IMG/VR virus record: IMGVR_UViG_2734482782_000001
Span: 1 to 28,372 of that record
DNA length: 28,372 nt
Direction: 5' to 3' (one strand)
Source of the DNA: a virus
Taxonomy: Duplodnaviria > Heunggongvirae > Uroviricota > Caudoviricetes
Shown here: one piece after another, positions 2,500-23,118 of the stretch
Numbering within the stretch: the first letter of the stretch is position 1
Layout: each line of letters starts with the position of its first letter
Translations under genes and position numbers: made by a program
The notes under the pieces: model-generated
Told to the model about the DNA's origin: nothing
Database searches by the model: none
Seen by the model: the letters and a program-made list of their open reading frames with translations, nothing else

Positions 2500-3153
2500 T
2501 TAGCCTCCCAGAGGTTTTGTATTGCTGCCGCCGCTTTCCACACCGCCATGCGTATGCTTATCAACGATTGAGCCATCCACCAGCTGCAGGCGGCCGTCAG
2601 ACAGAATTTTCAGGCCGTTCAGGTTGAACCCTCCCGGCGCGGTACCGGCTATAGCCCCACTTGAAGGATTAAGGCTCAGTTTGGTTCTGCCATCGTCGCT
2701 GCGCAGCTCAACCGCGCTGCCGCTGATGCCGCTGATTTTCTGCGCCTGCGACTGCGGTCCGACGATACAGAACGCATCCGATAAATCATGCACCCGGTCG
2801 TCGACAGGCTCCTGCACCCCGCCGTTCTGCCACCAGAAATCGATGCAGCGATCGGCGAAAATCACCAGGCATTCATCACCGGCTTTCACCGGGAACGTTA
2901 GCGTGCAGCCGCCGCCGCGTGGAAATATCACCGGCACATCCACCAGCAGCGGGTAATTTTTGGTAACGCGGTTGCCGTCGTTATCCGTTTCAACCGAACG
3001 AATAGCTGGCTGCACAACCGCCGTAACCGCGTCATGGTCGAATGACTGAACGATGCCAGGCAAAGCGACTCGGAGCTGGTTCTTTGTTGTGTCCCGCTCA
3101 GATTTGAATGTTTCGGCGAGGTCGCCGCTTCGGGTCTGGTCAGATACTGCCAT
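2500..3153 (-). CDS. Baseplate assembly protein V / central spike-like
   Basis: The track ORF 2500-3174 begins with TTG inside the terminator flank. The in-frame ATG at 3153 (MAVSDQTRSG...) is preceded by GGAGCC at good spacing, so I prefer that start. Size and position fit gpV-like. Confidence 0.6.
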   Translation of the reverse strand: MAVSDQTRSGDLAETFKSERDTTKNQLRVALPGIVQSFDHDAVTAVVQPAIRSVETDNDGNRVTKNYPLLVDVPVIFPRGGGCTLTFPVKAGDECLVIFADRCIDFWWQNGGVQEPVDDRVHDLSDAFCIVGPQSQAQKISGISGSAVELRSDDGRTKLSLNPSSGAIAGTAPGGFNLNGLKILSDGRLQLVDGSIVDKHTHGGVESGGSNTKPLGG

Positions 3154-3172
3154 TTGGTAGGCTCCAGAAAGC

Positions 3173-3198
3173 AAAAAACCCGCCGGGTGGCGGGTTTT
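3173..3198 (-). terminator. Rho-independent terminator closing the AT-rich cargo operon
   Basis: Plus strand reads AAAAAACCCGCCgggtGGCGGGTTTT: a GC stem CCCGCC/GGCGGG with a 4-nt loop. On the minus-strand transcript the stem is followed by a U6 run, directly after the stop of the 131-aa gene. Confidence 0.75.
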
Positions 3199-3217
3199 GC
3201 TAATTCACTGAATGAGT

Positions 3218-3613
3218 TTAAACAGCTTCGTCAGTCTTCATTTTTTCCCACTGAGAAAAAATAGTCTTAACCTCTAAGAGAGATTGCTGTGCCATTGCTT
3301 TATCAATTGCACAGCTAGTGAGGTCATAATCAGCTTCATTTCGAGCCAATCTCTGTTGCTCAAGTTTGTAAGCCATGGATTTTAGGCTTAATGGATCATA
3401 TGGCTCCAGTTTGTTTTCACTCTTATTTTTAAGATAAGAGATAAGGCTGGAATGATGATCCTTCGTATAAGCAGGAAGACTGGTCAGATTCTCTTTTATT
3501 TCATGGTAAAGCGCATAATATGCTCGCGAAATAGTATTACGATAACCAACCTCAGAATCTTCCGCAAAGCAACGCTCCGCAGAAGATAAAAATTCAGAGC
3601 TAGTTATAGGCAT
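3218..3613 (-). CDS. Hypothetical cargo protein, 131 aa, HEPN-like motifs
   Basis: ATG start with AAGGGTG RBS; overlaps the upstream 256-aa gene by 14 nt. About 35% GC by eye. Contains R30-x6-H37 (RAYYALYH) and R91-N-x3-Y96 (RNEADY), reminiscent of the HEPN Rx4-6H signature. Not confirmed by HMM. Confidence 0.7.
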   Translation of the reverse strand: MPITSSEFLSSAERCFAEDSEVGYRNTISRAYYALYHEIKENLTSLPAYTKDHHSSLISYLKNKSENKLEPYDPLSLKSMAYKLEQQRLARNEADYDLTSCAIDKAMAQQSLLEVKTIFSQWEKMKTDEAV

Positions 3614-4370
3614 ATTTACACCCTTTCAAGCTATTTCTTTCAACGGAAAAACGTGCAATAAGATTGCAATCATCCAGTAAATCGATTGAACAAATTTCAT
3701 CTGCAAGTCGCATATTCATTGCAACCACCTGCTCAGGGGATGCATTGACTACCTCAACCAGATAAGTCCCACCAGATGCACCGTTGATGTCAGCACGATA
3801 TTCAGTTGGCGGGAATTCAGCCATAACTCTATGAACAGCAAGAGCAACTTGCATGTATTGTTCTGAAGAGCAACCTGACTTTTTGTATGCTTCATCCATA
3901 TCGTGAATTACCTCCTGCAAGAAGGCTTCTGCGTCATCCCTATGTTCTTCTTGGGATAACATTTTGCAATGACGTCCAAAATATTCTACGCATTTTGATA
4001 GTTTCCCTACCAAATATGCAACGCCACCAGCCCTGTAAGTAAACCACTTGGTTGGATACTTATCAGCTAAAGAATAGATGTAGTAGTCCGATTTTTCGAG
4101 TAGAGAAAAACGCTCAAGCAGCTTACAAAAAATCCGCGCAAAGTTAACGTCAGCATGTGGGAGGATAGCTTCAAGCATTTCTATCCCGACACTCACCTCA
4201 CCTTTTGCAATATGAGCCAAAGCTACAAGCGTGTCAGCAGGCGGAGTATGCTTAGAGCCATATTCCGAAACCACCTCTCGAAAGGTCCAAATATCAAGAG
4301 GTTGACCACTATTGATTATCTTAACCAACTGGTCAAAACGCTCTTCCGCTTTCAGTTTTGGTCTTGCCAC
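3600..4370 (-). CDS. Hypothetical cargo protein, 256 aa, no recognisable motifs
   Basis: Long ORF in the AT-rich island. The first start codon after the in-frame upstream stop is GTG at 4370 with a weak SD, so the start is uncertain. No P-loop or nucleotidyltransferase motif seen. Confidence 0.65.
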   Translation of the reverse strand: MARPKLKAEERFDQLVKIINSGQPLDIWTFREVVSEYGSKHTPPADTLVALAHIAKGEVSVGIEMLEAILPHADVNFARIFCKLLERFSLLEKSDYYIYSLADKYPTKWFTYRAGGVAYLVGKLSKCVEYFGRHCKMLSQEEHRDDAEAFLQEVIHDMDEAYKKSGCSSEQYMQVALAVHRVMAEFPPTEYRADINGASGGTYLVEVVNASPEQVVAMNMRLADEICSIDLLDDCNLIARFSVERNSLKGCKYAYN

Positions 4371-4399
4371 AGTACGCTCGCTACTTATCTTTTGGTTGA

Positions 4400-4429
4400 A
4401 TTTTATGTTCGCGTATACAGTTTAGTCAA
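4400..4429 (-). promoter_or_regulatory. Candidate sigma70 promoter for the 256-aa/131-aa cargo operon
   Basis: On the minus strand: -35 TTGACT (4429-4424), 18-nt spacer, -10 TAAAAT (4405-4400), about 30 nt upstream of the GTG start at 4370. Confidence 0.45.
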
Positions 4430-4490
4430 TCCGAAGCTCATGCCGCTGAGCCGTTTCGCACAAAATCATCCATGCAAAAGGGATTGGACT

Positions 4491-4838
4491 TCAACCTGGC
4501 ACTTTCTTACACGGGAAAGAGCCGATGATTTTCGGCGCGTCCATGCTGTTCTGCAGCAGTTGGACGTTCAGGAAACGCGTTTCGGTACCAGGGCGATGGA
4601 TATACTCAAACCCATAGTTGTTGCCATCTTTAGCAGGCATTAGACCCATTTTGATCTGCATGCCTGTACCGTCTTTGCCCAACATTTTAACCTTTTGGGA
4701 TGTTACGGTTTCGCCATTGATTTTAAACAATGAGTCAGGGATCGCGTCCATACGAAAGTTACCACATTGCATCGTTATAGTGTTTGCACTTGCGCCAACA
4801 GACGCTAACGCCAGCAATGAAAAAATCCATCGTTTCAT
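4491..4838 (-). CDS. Small secreted protein with Sec signal peptide (cargo)
   Basis: The track ORF starts further upstream, but the internal ATG at 4838 gives MKRWIFSLLALASVGASA|NT..., a classic n/h/c signal peptide with an A-S-A cleavage site. GAGGGGG RBS sits 10 nt upstream; the start lies 2 nt after the hub stop. About 40-48% GC. Confidence 0.65.
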   Translation of the reverse strand: MKRWIFSLLALASVGASANTITMQCGNFRMDAIPDSLFKINGETVTSQKVKMLGKDGTGMQIKMGLMPAKDGNNYGFEYIHRPGTETRFLNVQLLQNSMDAPKIIGSFPCKKVPG

Positions 4839-4840
4839 TT

Positions 4841-5905
4841 CTATAACCCCCTCTGCAATGCAGTGCTCGATGGCATATCCTGCGCGCCACGCGCTTCGCA
4901 CATCATATCCATATACCACGCTTGGCCCCTTGTGTCGCCAGTGTACATAATCCCACGCACAATATAAACGCCATCCGTTGCGATGCTGGCAGGCTGCGCC
5001 GTGGTACCGCTGAGCGTGATATTGCCGTCTGTATTCTGGTCGGTGATGCGGCCCCCAGCCATCGCGATATCGTTGTTCGACAGTGCGGTGCGGAATACCG
5101 AAGCCTGATCCAGCTGAATGAGTCCGTTAACCCGGATGTTCGGGTTTATCAGCGCACGGACGTTCACGCCGTTGCCGATGGTCTGCTGCGGCATGCCGAT
5201 AAGCCCGGTGGCGCTGTTGAGCACAATCGCGTCGTGAACATACTCGTTATTCGCCACCATCTGGCGCTGGCCGTCCACGAACTGCCATGTTGCGCCACAT
5301 TGCCCGGCCACGTTATCCATAAGATGCCGTGTCATGCCGAACAGCACCCTGCCCCGGGGAAAAACGGTAGCAGGCATTTCAGGCGTCAGGCCTTCGGTCG
5401 CGCCTTTGGCCTCGAAGTCTTTCATCAGCGCGCGGTTCACGTCTGCGACCGTATAACCGGCCGCCAGCGTCTGCGAGGTTATGCTGGTGGCAAAGGCCAG
5501 ATCTGTATCGGCTGCCTGAATCAGGACGTAGGAATCAATGGGGCTGTCTTTTCCTGTGACCGAGTAACGAATTTCGCCGCTAAAAATCAGACCGTAGTTC
5601 CGGCCATCACTCTGGCCCACGTCCGCCGCGTCAACCTCCCGCACGGTCCCGACGTCGCTTGCCGATACCTCCGGCGCGATACCGTCGTAACCGGCAATTA
5701 GCCGCACCTTAGAAAACTCCTGCCCGGTGATGCGGTTCACCGTATCTGCCGAGAGGTTGTAGATTTTGAACGTTCCCACCCGGGACGCGCTGCTGATGTT
5801 GAACCAGTCGATCGTAAAGGTCACTTTAAAATCGCTGAGCTCAATACCCTGCCCGTTCTCGTCCACGAGCTGCAGCTCGAAATGTCTCATCCAGTTCTGC
5901 GACAT
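4841..5905 (-). CDS. Baseplate hub / tail protein (P2 gpD / Mu gp44-like position)
   Basis: 354-aa ORF, ATG start, high GC, placed after the tape measure and small tail proteins. Confidence 0.55.
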   Translation of the reverse strand: MSQNWMRHFELQLVDENGQGIELSDFKVTFTIDWFNISSASRVGTFKIYNLSADTVNRITGQEFSKVRLIAGYDGIAPEVSASDVGTVREVDAADVGQSDGRNYGLIFSGEIRYSVTGKDSPIDSYVLIQAADTDLAFATSITSQTLAAGYTVADVNRALMKDFEAKGATEGLTPEMPATVFPRGRVLFGMTRHLMDNVAGQCGATWQFVDGQRQMVANNEYVHDAIVLNSATGLIGMPQQTIGNGVNVRALINPNIRVNGLIQLDQASVFRTALSNNDIAMAGGRITDQNTDGNITLSGTTAQPASIATDGVYIVRGIMYTGDTRGQAWYMDMMCEARGAQDMPSSTALQRGL

Positions 5906-20219: not shown

Positions 20220-20822
20220 TCAGCCCAGGTATTTTTTGTAGATATCTGCTGCTTCCTGCGGGGTCAGGTTCGCCGCGTCGGCTTTGGCTGTCTCGTCCAT
20301 ATTGTTGAACGATTCGAAAATCTTCGGTGCTTCCAGCTCCATAAGCAGGGTTGCCGGAACTTTTACCCCCTCAGCCTCAAGCAGCTGCGCCGCCTCCAGC
20401 GCGGAGTATTTCCCGGCCACCTTATGTTTCATCACCTCGCGAAGCACATCACGCTGACGTTCTTCCTCGCTATAGACGCTGGTACCAAGACCGAGCACCT
20501 TTGAGAAAACAGCAATATCGTTGTGCGTGGGCAGCACATCTTCAATCGTGGTTTTCACACCATCCGGCGATGTGGTGACAACTTTCCGTTTACGAACGTC
20601 CAGGCTCTTACCGGCGACGCGGTTTATTTTCTCTCTGAGAGCTTCGCGAGCCTCAGTGAAAGCGCGCTCAAACTCGATATTCTCTTTACGCCAGCGACGG
20701 ATCGTCGTCTCGTCCACACCTAAGCGCTGAGCAACCATCCGATTGCTGATTTTGCTACGGGCTAATGCCATGTCCATAACGATACCGACGTAGGCTTTTC
20801 TGAAGCTTTTTTTAGGAGCCAT
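20220..20822 (-). CDS. Terminase small subunit (HTH DNA-binding)
   Basis: 200-aa ORF, ATG start, immediately upstream of TerL. N-terminal HTH-like SNRMVAQRLGVDETTIRRWR. Confidence 0.6.
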   Translation of the reverse strand: MAPKKSFRKAYVGIVMDMALARSKISNRMVAQRLGVDETTIRRWRKENIEFERAFTEAREALREKINRVAGKSLDVRKRKVVTTSPDGVKTTIEDVLPTHNDIAVFSKVLGLGTSVYSEEERQRDVLREVMKHKVAGKYSALEAAQLLEAEGVKVPATLLMELEAPKIFESFNNMDETAKADAANLTPQEAADIYKKYLG

Positions 20823-21066: not shown

Positions 21067-22071
21067 TCAGTCTAAATCCATCTCCACCACTTCACCGAAC
21101 AGGTGACCGTAAACGTCCATTGTGGTTTTGATGTTCGAATGCCCAATAAGTCGGGAAACCTTCAGAATATCGACGCCTTTGTTTGCCAGGCGAGATACAG
21201 CAAAGTGGCGAAGATGATGGAATCGTTTAATGCCATAGTCGTTCAGGGTTCTGACGAGAACGCCCTGAGTGCCGTAGCTGGTAGCAAGGCATGCGCCGGT
21301 AAACTGGTTGCAGATAAGAGGCTCAGAGGTACCGAGTTTACTTTTATCCAGCAACGCGAAAAGCTCACGCGGCATCCGTACCCGGCGCTCCACTCCTCTT
21401 TTCAGCCCCTCATGTATAACGCCGTCAACAACATGCCCCCGGATGTCGATCCAGTCGGCTGACACGTCGTTATAAGTAACAGCCAGAGCCTCACCGATGC
21501 GCAGGCCACAAATCCCGAGCCAGCACGCGATTCGCTCACGAACTGGCGCGTTATTCAGTAGCTCCCTGACCGATGATGATGGCGGTATGGTGATGGGTCG
21601 ACGCTTCCGGCGCGCGGGACGGTCAACAGGGTTAAAAGTGATGAGCCGTTTTTCCACCAGCAGGAAGAAAGCCGAACGAATCCAGCGATGGCAGCCGGTG
21701 CGAACCGAATCAACGATATCGCGATGGCTGATATGGAGAATATTTTTTTCCAGTATCGGCCCGTCTACAGCGAGAAGATCGTGACGGCATTTCGTATATG
21801 ACGACAGCCGTATGATATTTTTTTCCAGCTTGCCGGCCTGATACCCCAGATAAAACAGAATTAACTTTCGGAAAGTCCAGGAATGGTCTATTCCGGTCCA
21901 GCTGGCAGTTCGACAATCCAGCTCGATATTCTGTTTTTGCCAGAAAAGATGTGCGGCATCATCAATATTCTTAAAAATGCGGCGGCGTCCATGACCGGAT
22001 TTTTCATCCTTCCAGTGGACGTAATATTTTGATTGTCCATTGGCATCAGTGGATTCTTTTATCGAAGCCAT
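21067..22071 (-). CDS. int: Tyrosine-type site-specific recombinase / integrase
   Basis: The track starts at TTG 22080; the ATG at 22071 has a GAGGA RBS 9 nt upstream. C-terminal HLRHFAVSRL and GHSNIKTTMDVYGHL match the H-x-x-R and catalytic Tyr pattern of the tyrosine recombinase family. Confidence 0.8.
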   Translation of the reverse strand: MASIKESTDANGQSKYYVHWKDEKSGHGRRRIFKNIDDAAHLFWQKQNIELDCRTASWTGIDHSWTFRKLILFYLGYQAGKLEKNIIRLSSYTKCRHDLLAVDGPILEKNILHISHRDIVDSVRTGCHRWIRSAFFLLVEKRLITFNPVDRPARRKRRPITIPPSSSVRELLNNAPVRERIACWLGICGLRIGEALAVTYNDVSADWIDIRGHVVDGVIHEGLKRGVERRVRMPRELFALLDKSKLGTSEPLICNQFTGACLATSYGTQGVLVRTLNDYGIKRFHHLRHFAVSRLANKGVDILKVSRLIGHSNIKTTMDVYGHLFGEVVEMDLD

Positions 22072-22250
22072 GCTGAACAATCCTCACTCAAAAAACATTA
22101 TCAAAGCCACTCGCCGAATGGATTTGATAATGCTAATAAAAATGTCTCGGAAGCTATCCTTCTGTGCTCCCAATCAAGCTTTGCCGTTGCACCCTCATCA
22201 TATGAAAAAGTTCATGATACATTATGCTTTTATCAACTGAGGTGATCGCG

Positions 22251-22502
22251 ATGTCTGAACTCGAAAGTAGAGTTAATGAACTTGAAACAGAAAATGAAGA
22301 ATTGAAGTTAGAAATTCAAGCTTTGCGAATTGCAGTGGTAACTATCTCTTCTGTCGTAAACGAGGCTGTCGGCAAAACGGCTGGCTTAATGGGTAACACC
22401 ATTGAGGAAAGTTTGATTTTTGATGAAGACTTAGACCAAGATGAAGAGCGCTTCAACAAAATGAAATCAAAATTAGTTCACCTTTTAGGCAAAAAAGAGT
22501 AG
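22251..22502 (+). CDS. Small acidic coiled-coil protein, function unknown
   Basis: Only convincing plus-strand gene. ATG at 22251 with GAGGTGA RBS (the track's upstream ATG at 22224 has no SD). 83 aa, glutamate-rich heptad pattern (ELESRVNELETENEELKLEIQALR). AT-rich; convergent with the lysis operon. Confidence 0.6.
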   Translation: MSELESRVNELETENEELKLEIQALRIAVVTISSVVNEAVGKTAGLMGNTIEESLIFDEDLDQDEERFNKMKSKLVHLLGKKE

Positions 22503-22533
22503 TAACCACCTTTCCCTCTTGTTTTTAATAAAA

Positions 22534-22558
22534 TCGTCGCCAGCAGTGACTGGCGGCG
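22534..22558 (-). terminator. Terminator-like hairpin between convergent Rz and the plus-strand small gene
   Basis: 9-bp stem CGTCGCCAG/CTGGCGGCG with one mismatch; on the minus transcript it is followed by AUUUUAUUAAAAA. Confidence 0.45.
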
Positions 22559-22572
22559 AAATTGACTTATGT

Positions 22573-23118
22573 TTATTTCCTTTCATCCTCTATTTGACGT
22601 ATTCCAGCCAGCTGATTATTCGCTTTTTCGATGGCGGCCAGTAGCGGCTTGATCCAAAGAACAGCCTGGCAATACGTCAGCGAGCTGGTGGAAGCGGCAC
22701 TATCACCGGCTGCGTCAGCGCTCCCGGAATCGGTGTGCATTGCGCTGGCACGTAGACGGTGCGTGTATTCGAGCAGCCCACCAGCGACATCAGCAGGAAC
22801 AGGCAGATCACAGGTTTTTTCACGGCGGAGAATCTCCCGGTACTCCATAACAGTTTTATCGGAGCTGGCATCAATCAATGAGTTAAGTCGGCTGGCGTTT
22901 TCGGCCACCTGGTTAAACCGGTTGAAGTTGAAAGCCTGAGCAGCGATAACCGTCCCCTGCAGGTTGTTGTCACTGCGCAGAACGTCATTATCACTCTTCA
23001 GCGTAGCAACGTCAGAGCGGCTGTTTGCAAGCAGGACACACAGCCCGGCGACTACCGCAATGACGGCAACCAGCAGTATCAGACGCCATGAGGCTTTGAT
23101 ATCTGTAAAGGTGATCAT
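22573..23118 (-). CDS. Rz-like inner-membrane spanin (i-spanin)
   Basis: 181-aa ORF, ATG overlapping the endolysin stop (ATGA). N-terminal TM helix WRLILLVAVIAVVAGLCVLLA followed by a periplasmic helical domain. Last gene of the lysis cassette. Confidence 0.7.
   Translation of the reverse strand: MITFTDIKASWRLILLVAVIAVVAGLCVLLANSRSDVATLKSDNDVLRSDNNLQGTVIAAQAFNFNRFNQVAENASRLNSLIDASSDKTVMEYREILRREKTCDLPVPADVAGGLLEYTHRLRASAMHTDSGSADAAGDSAASTSSLTYCQAVLWIKPLLAAIEKANNQLAGIRQIEDERK
22677..22871 (-). CDS. Rz1-like outer-membrane lipoprotein spanin (o-spanin), embedded in Rz in another frame
   Basis: ORF entirely inside Rz. Lipobox L-V-G-C preceded by a hydrophobic stretch (KKPVICLFLLMSLVGC); proline-rich mature part (PAQCTPIPGALTQPVIVPLPPAR). 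Start codon uncertain. Confidence 0.55.
   Translation of the reverse strand: MPAPIKLLWSTGRFSAVKKPVICLFLLMSLVGCSNTRTVYVPAQCTPIPGALTQPVIVPLPPAR

Follow-up and report, generated by a model that had tools for sequence, protein, structure and literature searches.

A non-canonical HEPN protein and its TPR-like partner: a mobile two-gene prophage cassette with a predicted RNase effector

HEPN ribonucleases (RNases) constitute the killing or arrest modules of Cas13, Csm6, RnlA, HepT and AbiV and, according to three preprints of July 2026, also of type IX retrons. The present work deals with a small HEPN-like gene and the gene directly upstream of it, which together form a compact cassette in a prophage deposited as IMG/VR record IMGVR_UViG_2734482782_000001. 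Positions 1 to 28,372 of this record, i.e., the whole stretch of DNA analysed, are referred to as the window. The HEPN-like protein comprises 131 amino acids (aa), and the described proteins closest to it belong to two groups, the AF0298/UPF0332 branch of HEPN proteins and the HEPN effectors of type IX retrons. A structure of the former branch has been available since 2006, and no published function was found for it. In HEPN domains, the characteristic Rx4-6H motif lies where the penultimate core helix ends (PMC3710099). AF0298-type proteins are archaeal or bacterial and usually associated with MNT nucleotidyltransferases or stand-alone; in this HEPN-T type the His of the motif is usually lost and the Arg retained, and a second strongly conserved His in the insert between helices 2 and 3 could give an alternative active site (PMC3710099). 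The same layout of His and Arg was remarked for the HEPN protein of type IX retrons (PMC7736814). According to three preprints of July 2026, H64 and R122 of the Retron-Kva2 HEPN protein make up a composite site at the dimer interface, and the substitutions H64A and R122A abolish toxicity as well as defence. Moreover, residues Y40-42 position the substrate, the Y40-42A mutant loses defence, and the cuts made by the HEPNs of type IX retrons fall in tRNA anticodon loops and/or in rRNA; mutating these His, Arg and Tyr residues also abolishes the cleavage (July 2026 preprints).

The 131-aa open reading frame (ORF) of the window extends over positions 3218-3613 on the minus strand, with its ATG at 3613 and its stop at 3218, and is assigned here as a non-canonical HEPN gene of the AF0298/UPF0332-like HEPN-T type with a predicted RNase effector as product. 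A preliminary description of the same DNA, which gave no strand, had noted two short HEPN-like motifs and a size and predicted helicity that fit stand-alone HEPN toxins or antitoxin partners. Size and helicity were borne out. The AlphaFold2 (AF2) model of the 131-aa product is all-helical, with helices at residues 5-17, 21-43, 54-65, 74-96 and 105-130 arranged as an up-and-down bundle with HEPN topology like that of solved HEPN domains. Taken alone, the protein gave no Pfam match above threshold (top ATC_hydrolase, E 0.05) and no NCBIfam match, and the PHROGs scan placed it in PHROG 5176, a family without assigned function. The best meaningful match of this single sequence in the Protein Data Bank (PDB) was the AF0298/UPF0332 protein (2hsb, E 0.31), and PADLOC HEPN_IX was matched in the N-terminal half only (E 0.0089, 14 bits). 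When a profile built from 11 close homologues was run by HMMER against all of 1.84 billion representatives, it yielded 788 clusters at E <=1e-3 and 87 at E <=1e-10 (clusters of 50% identity), and nearly all of the listed matches were 120-140 aa long. For conservation analysis, 102 relatives with 24-77% identity to the query were aligned. The profile of this family matched the PDB entries 9xbd and 9xbc, both termed 'HEPN domain-containing protein', at E 1.5e-12 and 1.9e-11, AF0298 at E 9.8e-9 (roughly 1e-8) and the Retron-Kva2 HEPN at E 0.018. Furthermore, Pfam HEPN PF05168 was matched by 53 of the 102 relatives and PADLOC HEPN_IX by 56 (best E 9e-7). The profile comparison that the preliminary description had suggested was thus positive, with the similarity to the HEPN superfamily running through the family profile and the relatives that hit PF05168. 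Because of the family-profile, PF05168 and PADLOC HEPN_IX matches, the membership of the 131-aa protein in the HEPN fold is well supported, and by fold and signature it belongs to the AF0298/UPF0332-like HEPN-T clade. Besides, the PADLOC candidate-system model PDC-M05B was matched by five of the 102 relatives (best E 8e-5), and therefore another unvalidated phage defence candidate may contain a related HEPN.

The question of which residues form the HEPN signature requires a revision of the motifs. The preliminary description had noted that R30-A-Y32-Y33-A-L-Y-H37 (3503-3526, minus strand) fits the spacing of the Rx4-6H motif and that R91-N-E-A-D95-Y96 (3326-3343, minus strand) resembles an RNxxxH/Y variant, without deciding which of them is the signature. 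As bare patterns both are weak because composition-preserving shuffles of the 131-aa protein yield such spacings, R-x4-6-H in 28% and RNxxx[H/Y] in 1.7% of cases, so that their weight comes from conservation and fold. Both elements do lie within core helices. The first, nevertheless, does not hold as the HEPN signature, since it sits in helix 2 instead of at the end of the penultimate core helix and has a spacing so frequent among the shuffles. The second, at the C-terminal end of helix 4, marks the true position of the motif, but 'RNxxxY' is no recognised H-to-Y variant. With N92 kept in merely 20 of the 102 relatives, 'RN' is no family feature, and the conserved unit is R-x3-D-Y. Five residues (R25, Y32, Y33, R91 and Y96) are present in all relatives, E21, H54 and D95 in 101, H37 in 100 and R30 in 97. 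The canonical Rx4-6H is absent, as R91 in the motif position is followed by N-E-A-D-Y and no His; several accepted HEPN families are likewise devoid of it (PMC3710099). The observed pattern is the one of HEPN-T proteins: the Arg is kept throughout, the His is lost, and the nearly invariant H54 (3452-3454, minus strand) is found where helix 3 begins, directly behind the loop 44-53. In the profile alignment to the Kva2 chain (36ht_I), H54 is placed on H64 and R30-A-Y32-Y33 on R39-Y40-Y41-Y42. H54 is also aligned with the His of 'KTH' in AF0298, and the place of H37 is taken by Leu in Kva2 and by Tyr in 9xbd. H54, R91 and Y32/Y33 are aligned with H64, R122 and Y41/Y42 of the type IX retron effector, R91 within a second stretch that is weak on its own. 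By its position, R91-x3-D95-Y96 is the counterpart of Rx4-6H with its His gone, with R91 as predicted catalytic Arg and H54 as predicted relocated catalytic His. R30-x6-H37, in turn, is a conserved family motif that probably helps to position the substrate; it does not represent the catalytic HEPN signature. By homology, H54, R91 and Y32/Y33 would be expected to cluster in space.

The role of the invariant Y96 could be catalysis, RNA stacking or that of a modification site. Within the region aligned to profile residues 27-127, the PDB entries 9xbd and 9xbc differ solely at the motif Tyr (RNRSDY vs. RNRSDF); the invariant Tyr has apparently been targeted experimentally by someone, and a literature search on both PDB codes found no citing paper. 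The conservation of this residue is also of relevance for the explanation that the HEPN protein is inert and serves as an RNA- or nucleotide-binding adaptor, a regulator or an antitoxin-like subunit, the active component being the partner protein or a recruited host factor. Among the HEPN domains devoid of the motif, many bind their ligand and do not catalyse, e.g., MtlR and the MNT-fused HEPNs (PMC3710099), and the canonical His is missing here as well. Additionally, Y96 is the equivalent of a Tyr that MNT-associated HEPNs conserve, and it may be a site of modification; at this very position, 9xbc looks like a Y-to-F variant of 9xbd. We consider an inert HEPN protein unlikely.

The gene upstream of the HEPN gene (3600-4370, minus strand) starts with GTG and encodes a protein of 256 aa, a predicted inhibitor or sensor. 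Its AF2 model is confident (pLDDT, the predicted local distance difference test, of 89) and displays ten helices as tetratricopeptide (TPR)-like repeats (residues 4-185) as well as a C-terminal unit, a small alpha-beta-beta-alpha-beta element with a conserved GxSGG loop and an MNxxLA(D/E) helix. The end of the partner gene overlaps the 131-aa gene by 14 nucleotides (nt), and an AGGG Shine-Dalgarno-like element precedes the HEPN ATG. We propose that the two genes are translationally coupled, with the HEPN gene as the downstream member. A consensus scan marked a putative sigma-70-like promoter, TTGACT-18 nt-TAAAAT with 10 of 12 matches, about 30 nt upstream of the partner start (4400-4429, minus strand). 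At the other end, 20 nt after the HEPN stop, an intrinsic-terminator-like hairpin with a 10-bp stem, 6 G-C pairs and a T run was found by scanning (3175-3198, minus strand). The partner family is absent from Pfam, NCBIfam and PADLOC; the partner of the window matches no PADLOC retron model, and none of the partners matches PDC-M05A or another PADLOC model.

The HEPN protein might also be a classical HEPN-MNT (type VII) toxin silenced by AMPylation of its conserved Tyr; the nucleotidyltransferase would then come from the upstream gene or from another locus. The upstream protein, though, has no Pfam or NCBIfam nucleotidyltransferase match and a TPR-like fold, no MNT/NTP_transf family was found among the neighbours of eight relatives, and the Rx4HxY motif is lacking in the HEPN protein. 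Accordingly, this explanation is regarded as very improbable.

The association of the two genes is constant. Close homologues of both co-occur on the same contigs, and a gene for 245-266 aa is located immediately upstream of the HEPN gene, abutting or overlapping it, in all 11 informative contexts, which include relatives down to about 30% identity. The synteny of HEPN gene and partner is obligatory. Most of the partners could be joined by direct or transitive phmmer homology and a broadened profile, which gave 70 bits for contig L021, 32 for L009, 19 for L011 and 17 for L023. Single-sequence hhalign comparisons of the partners of L008, L009 and L011 with the narrow partner profile were not significant, and a word-indexed search with the partner alignment gained only two sequences. 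The surroundings, in turn, vary widely, as the cassette occupies at least seven different prophage positions. On contigs of relatives it was found in a lambdoid nin region, after a lysis cassette, beside a primase-like gene, adjoining an integrase and, in a siphovirus, ahead of the tape-measure gene; further relatives reside on short metagenomic contigs and in a Klebsiella prophage. In the Pseudomonas phage PG1, tape-measure and DNA-circularisation genes lie on either side, and in a P2-like Vibrio phage an ogr-like gene and gene A. Co-directional, overlapping, of conserved synteny and inserted at unrelated cargo sites, the pair thus constitutes a two-gene mobile cassette.

In complete E. coli genomes the cassette is rare (about 10 of 5426) and always chromosomal. 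The copy of the enteropathogenic E. coli (EPEC) strain E2348/69, where both genes are annotated as 'hypothetical' (WP_001123212.1, WP_000113597.1), encodes a HEPN protein 100% identical to that of the window from DNA that is 97.5% identical, all differences being synonymous. Compared to an 85%-identical E. coli copy, the ratio of non-synonymous to synonymous substitution rates (dN/dS) was 0.05-0.06 for the 131-aa gene and 0.05-0.08 across both cassette genes, and purifying selection on both is strong. Identities of 72-78% between HEPN proteins go along with 55-59% between the partners from the same contigs, and this faster divergence of the partner is the usual asymmetry of sensor or antitoxin vs. 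effector. The Klebsiella phage ST405-OXA48phi1.3 (MK416008.1 19076-19471; L016 3001-3396) carries an intact 131-aa HEPN ORF with a 17-nt partner overlap, which is mis-annotated because GenBank puts two short 'hypothetical' coding sequences across it.

The window represents a SEN34/Brunovirus-like myovirus prophage, in which the cassette and one further small ORF form a low-GC cargo island (3175-4840, delimited by composition and flanking Pfam assignments). The GC content of the island is 38-46% (HEPN gene 38%, partner 43%) vs. 57-58% in the flanking genes for the baseplate spike (2500-3174) and hub (4841-5905). In sister phages that share the hub and spike genes, the cassette is lacking and the slot is filled by other small genes, with ORFs of 138 and 77 aa in SEN34, 266 and 113 aa in YP3, and 170 and 111 aa in vB_EcoM-606R2; the corresponding slots comprise positions 1925-2749 of L017, 2351-3790 of L018 and 2350-3681 of L019. 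The hub-spike junction of SEN34/Brunovirus-like phages is thus a variable cargo slot. As the terminator at 3175-3198 sits inside the expected late tail operon, late transcription must read through it. The cassette has the anatomy of a prophage 'moron', a context that the preliminary description had overlooked together with the upstream partner gene and H54.

Due to its location, the pair might instead serve the phage itself as a tail or baseplate assembly chaperone pair, as a lysogeny regulator, or in anti-defence, by cleavage or sequestration of immune RNAs of the host. TPR proteins are often chaperones, and in the window, in PG1 and on L021 the cassette lies among tail genes in the same orientation. 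Nevertheless, it also occurs in non-structural regions (nin, after lysis genes, at an integrase, between ogr and gene A of a P2-like phage), sister phages with the same baseplate genes do without it, and its GC content is foreign. None of these observations speaks against an anti-defence role. On the whole, a function for the phage is judged to be decidedly unlikely.

Two further elements of the prophage deserve mention. The third island gene (4491-4835, minus strand; mechanical ORF to 4919) encodes about 113 aa, belongs to PHROG 3443 and adjoins the hub gene. Its product bears a signal-peptide-like N-terminal segment, MKRWIFSLLALASVGASA, and may act in the periplasm or in exclusion. With matches to this part of the query in about 290 E. 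coli genomes, the gene is far commoner than the HEPN cassette, and phage YP3 features an ORF of the same size (342 nt) in the same position beside different cargo. The third gene is probably an independent moron. Additionally, a tyrosine recombinase of 337 aa (21067-22080, minus strand; Phage_integrase E 2.6e-15, PHROG 1) has an HTH small-terminase-like gene (20220-20822) on one side and the lysis genes on the other, an odd site for an integrase. It adjoins a stretch of 38% GC (22000-22600) with an opposite-strand ORF for a 92-aa coiled-coil protein (22224-22502, PHROG 16546), and the recombinase and this stretch may represent a second cargo insertion or an invertase module.

Taken together, we lean towards the reading that the cassette encodes a non-canonical HEPN RNase effector which would be restrained or sensed by the TPR partner, i.e., a toxin-antitoxin-like or abortive-infection module. 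The models for such a function are the HEPN of type IX retrons, RnlAB/LsoAB and HepT-MntA. The active site would consist of R91, with which helix 4 closes, and H54, with which helix 3 begins, and would probably span a dimer interface, while Y32/Y33 of helix 2 would hold the RNA in position. The TPR partner may, in the lysogen, bind the HEPN dimer and hold its RNA-binding cleft shut. An infection cue would then free the RNase, either by capture of a phage protein in the TPR array or by loss of a labile partner once host expression is shut off. The freed enzyme might cut tRNA and/or rRNA, with translation arrest and an aborted infection as the consequence. The same module would serve as an addiction module, to the benefit of both lysogen and prophage.

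Several points weigh against this reading. For RNase activity, toxicity and defence alike, the extrapolation starts from a distant relative (Kva2 E 0.018 with the family profile; PADLOC HEPN_IX E 0.009 with the protein itself), and the stretch that places R91-NEA-D95-Y96 on R122-GIV-D126-Y127 of Kva2 is not significant alone. The AF2 model of the 131-aa protein is of moderate confidence (pLDDT 75) and retrieved no significant match from the PDB by Foldseek (E at least 0.4). The partner is large for an antitoxin and has no DNA-binding domain, and the role ascribed to it is a guess by analogy. The partners of phage PG1 and of contig L010 were not linked to the partner family by sequence. Moreover, the promoter is a consensus match of a kind that is not found in this region above shuffle expectation.

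As for its significance, a prophage family that is large and carries no annotation (PHROGs 5176, 17809; 'hypothetical' in RefSeq) is now tied to the AF0298/UPF0332 branch, its likely catalytic residues can be named by prediction (H54, R91, Y32/Y33), and its HEPN proteins are always paired with a TPR-like partner that evolves fast. Should the cassette act in defence or addiction, it would represent a new pairing of sensor and effector and a simple two-protein system for the gating of non-canonical HEPN sites, and in SEN34-like phages the junction of baseplate hub and spike genes would stand out as a cargo hot spot.

The combination of HEPN and TPR-like protein is not contained in PADLOC v2, Pfam or NCBIfam. 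A literature search by accession, PDB code and keyword found no paper on the cassette proteins. In the anti-phage toxin-antitoxin systems RnlA-RnlB and LsoA-LsoB, the HEPN toxin is large, has several domains and carries a canonical motif, and a small antitoxin is encoded downstream of it. No sequence relation exists between these systems and the cassette. The type VII toxin-antitoxin system HepT-MntA features the canonical Rx4HxY and an MNT AMPylase, both of which are absent here (R-x3-D-Y, no MNT); an MNT partner was rejected given the TPR-like fold and the missing nucleotidyltransferase match in Pfam and NCBIfam. The 'ANEX' pair, listed in the supplementary table of cloned DefensePredictor hits, consists of the E. 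coli HEPN family nuclease WP_000528930.1 and the 252-aa protein WP_000494510.1 and thus resembles the cassette in having two genes for a small HEPN and a partner of about 250 aa. A relationship with this system was rejected, as the motif of ANEX is canonical (RNSVAH), its two genes stand in the opposite order, and hhalign gave a probability below 1% for both proteins. The accessions of the E2348/69 proteins occur neither in the supplements of the DefensePredictor paper nor in any searched paper. Compared to the AF0298/UPF0332 HEPN-T proteins (PDB 2hsb; 9xbd/9xbc; periphery of PF05168), the constant partner here is a TPR-like protein of 256 aa and the carrier is a prophage. An MNT neighbour or fusion is typical there and was found here neither in the partner nor among the neighbours of eight relatives, although stand-alone versions are listed as well (PMC3710099).

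The HEPN proteins of type IX retrons (Retron-Kva2, Sen3, Yin1; PADLOC HEPN_IX; PDB 36ht) are likewise without Rx4-6H. Their catalytic His is located on core helix 3, the Arg on helix 4 and YY(Y) on helix 2, with H54, R91 and Y32/Y33 as counterparts in the 131-aa protein. Furthermore, the retron effector is an abortive-infection RNase acting on tRNA/rRNA and is kept inactive by a protein partner from an overlapping gene. The sequence relation is distant (E 0.009-0.018), and the protein has 131 aa here vs. 174 there. The partner gene lies upstream of the HEPN gene here, whereas in the retron the HEPN gene lies upstream of the gene for the winged-helix (WH; KH-HTH) protein, to which the TPR-like partner is unrelated by any search. 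Membership in a retron IX system was rejected, since reverse transcriptase (RT), non-coding RNA and WH protein are missing and the genes stand in reversed order. A retron effector in degenerate or split form that depends on an RT and multicopy single-stranded DNA (msDNA) encoded elsewhere could account for the closest defence-database model being the retron IX HEPN and for the common layout of the active site. This explanation is, however, extremely unlikely: the 28-kb window contains neither an RT ORF nor an Rfam RNA family, no RVT family was found near any relative examined, the order of the genes is reversed, the partner matches no PADLOC retron model, and the cassette is self-contained with its promoter-like site and terminator. 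A more specific version of the effector-partner reading, possible although on balance doubtful, is that of a minimal RT-free counterpart of the type IX retron effector module, in which the TPR protein would replace RT, msDNA and WH protein, cage the HEPN dimer and release it on binding of a phage protein. If true, the cassette would stand for a new, widespread two-gene anti-phage family (788 HEPN clusters at 50% identity), and the H...R-x3-D-Y HEPN RNase would be a portable effector reused with unrelated sensors. Among the characterised proteins, the type IX retron HEPN is, as far as the residue layout indicates, the one that the 131-aa protein would resemble most in its way of working.
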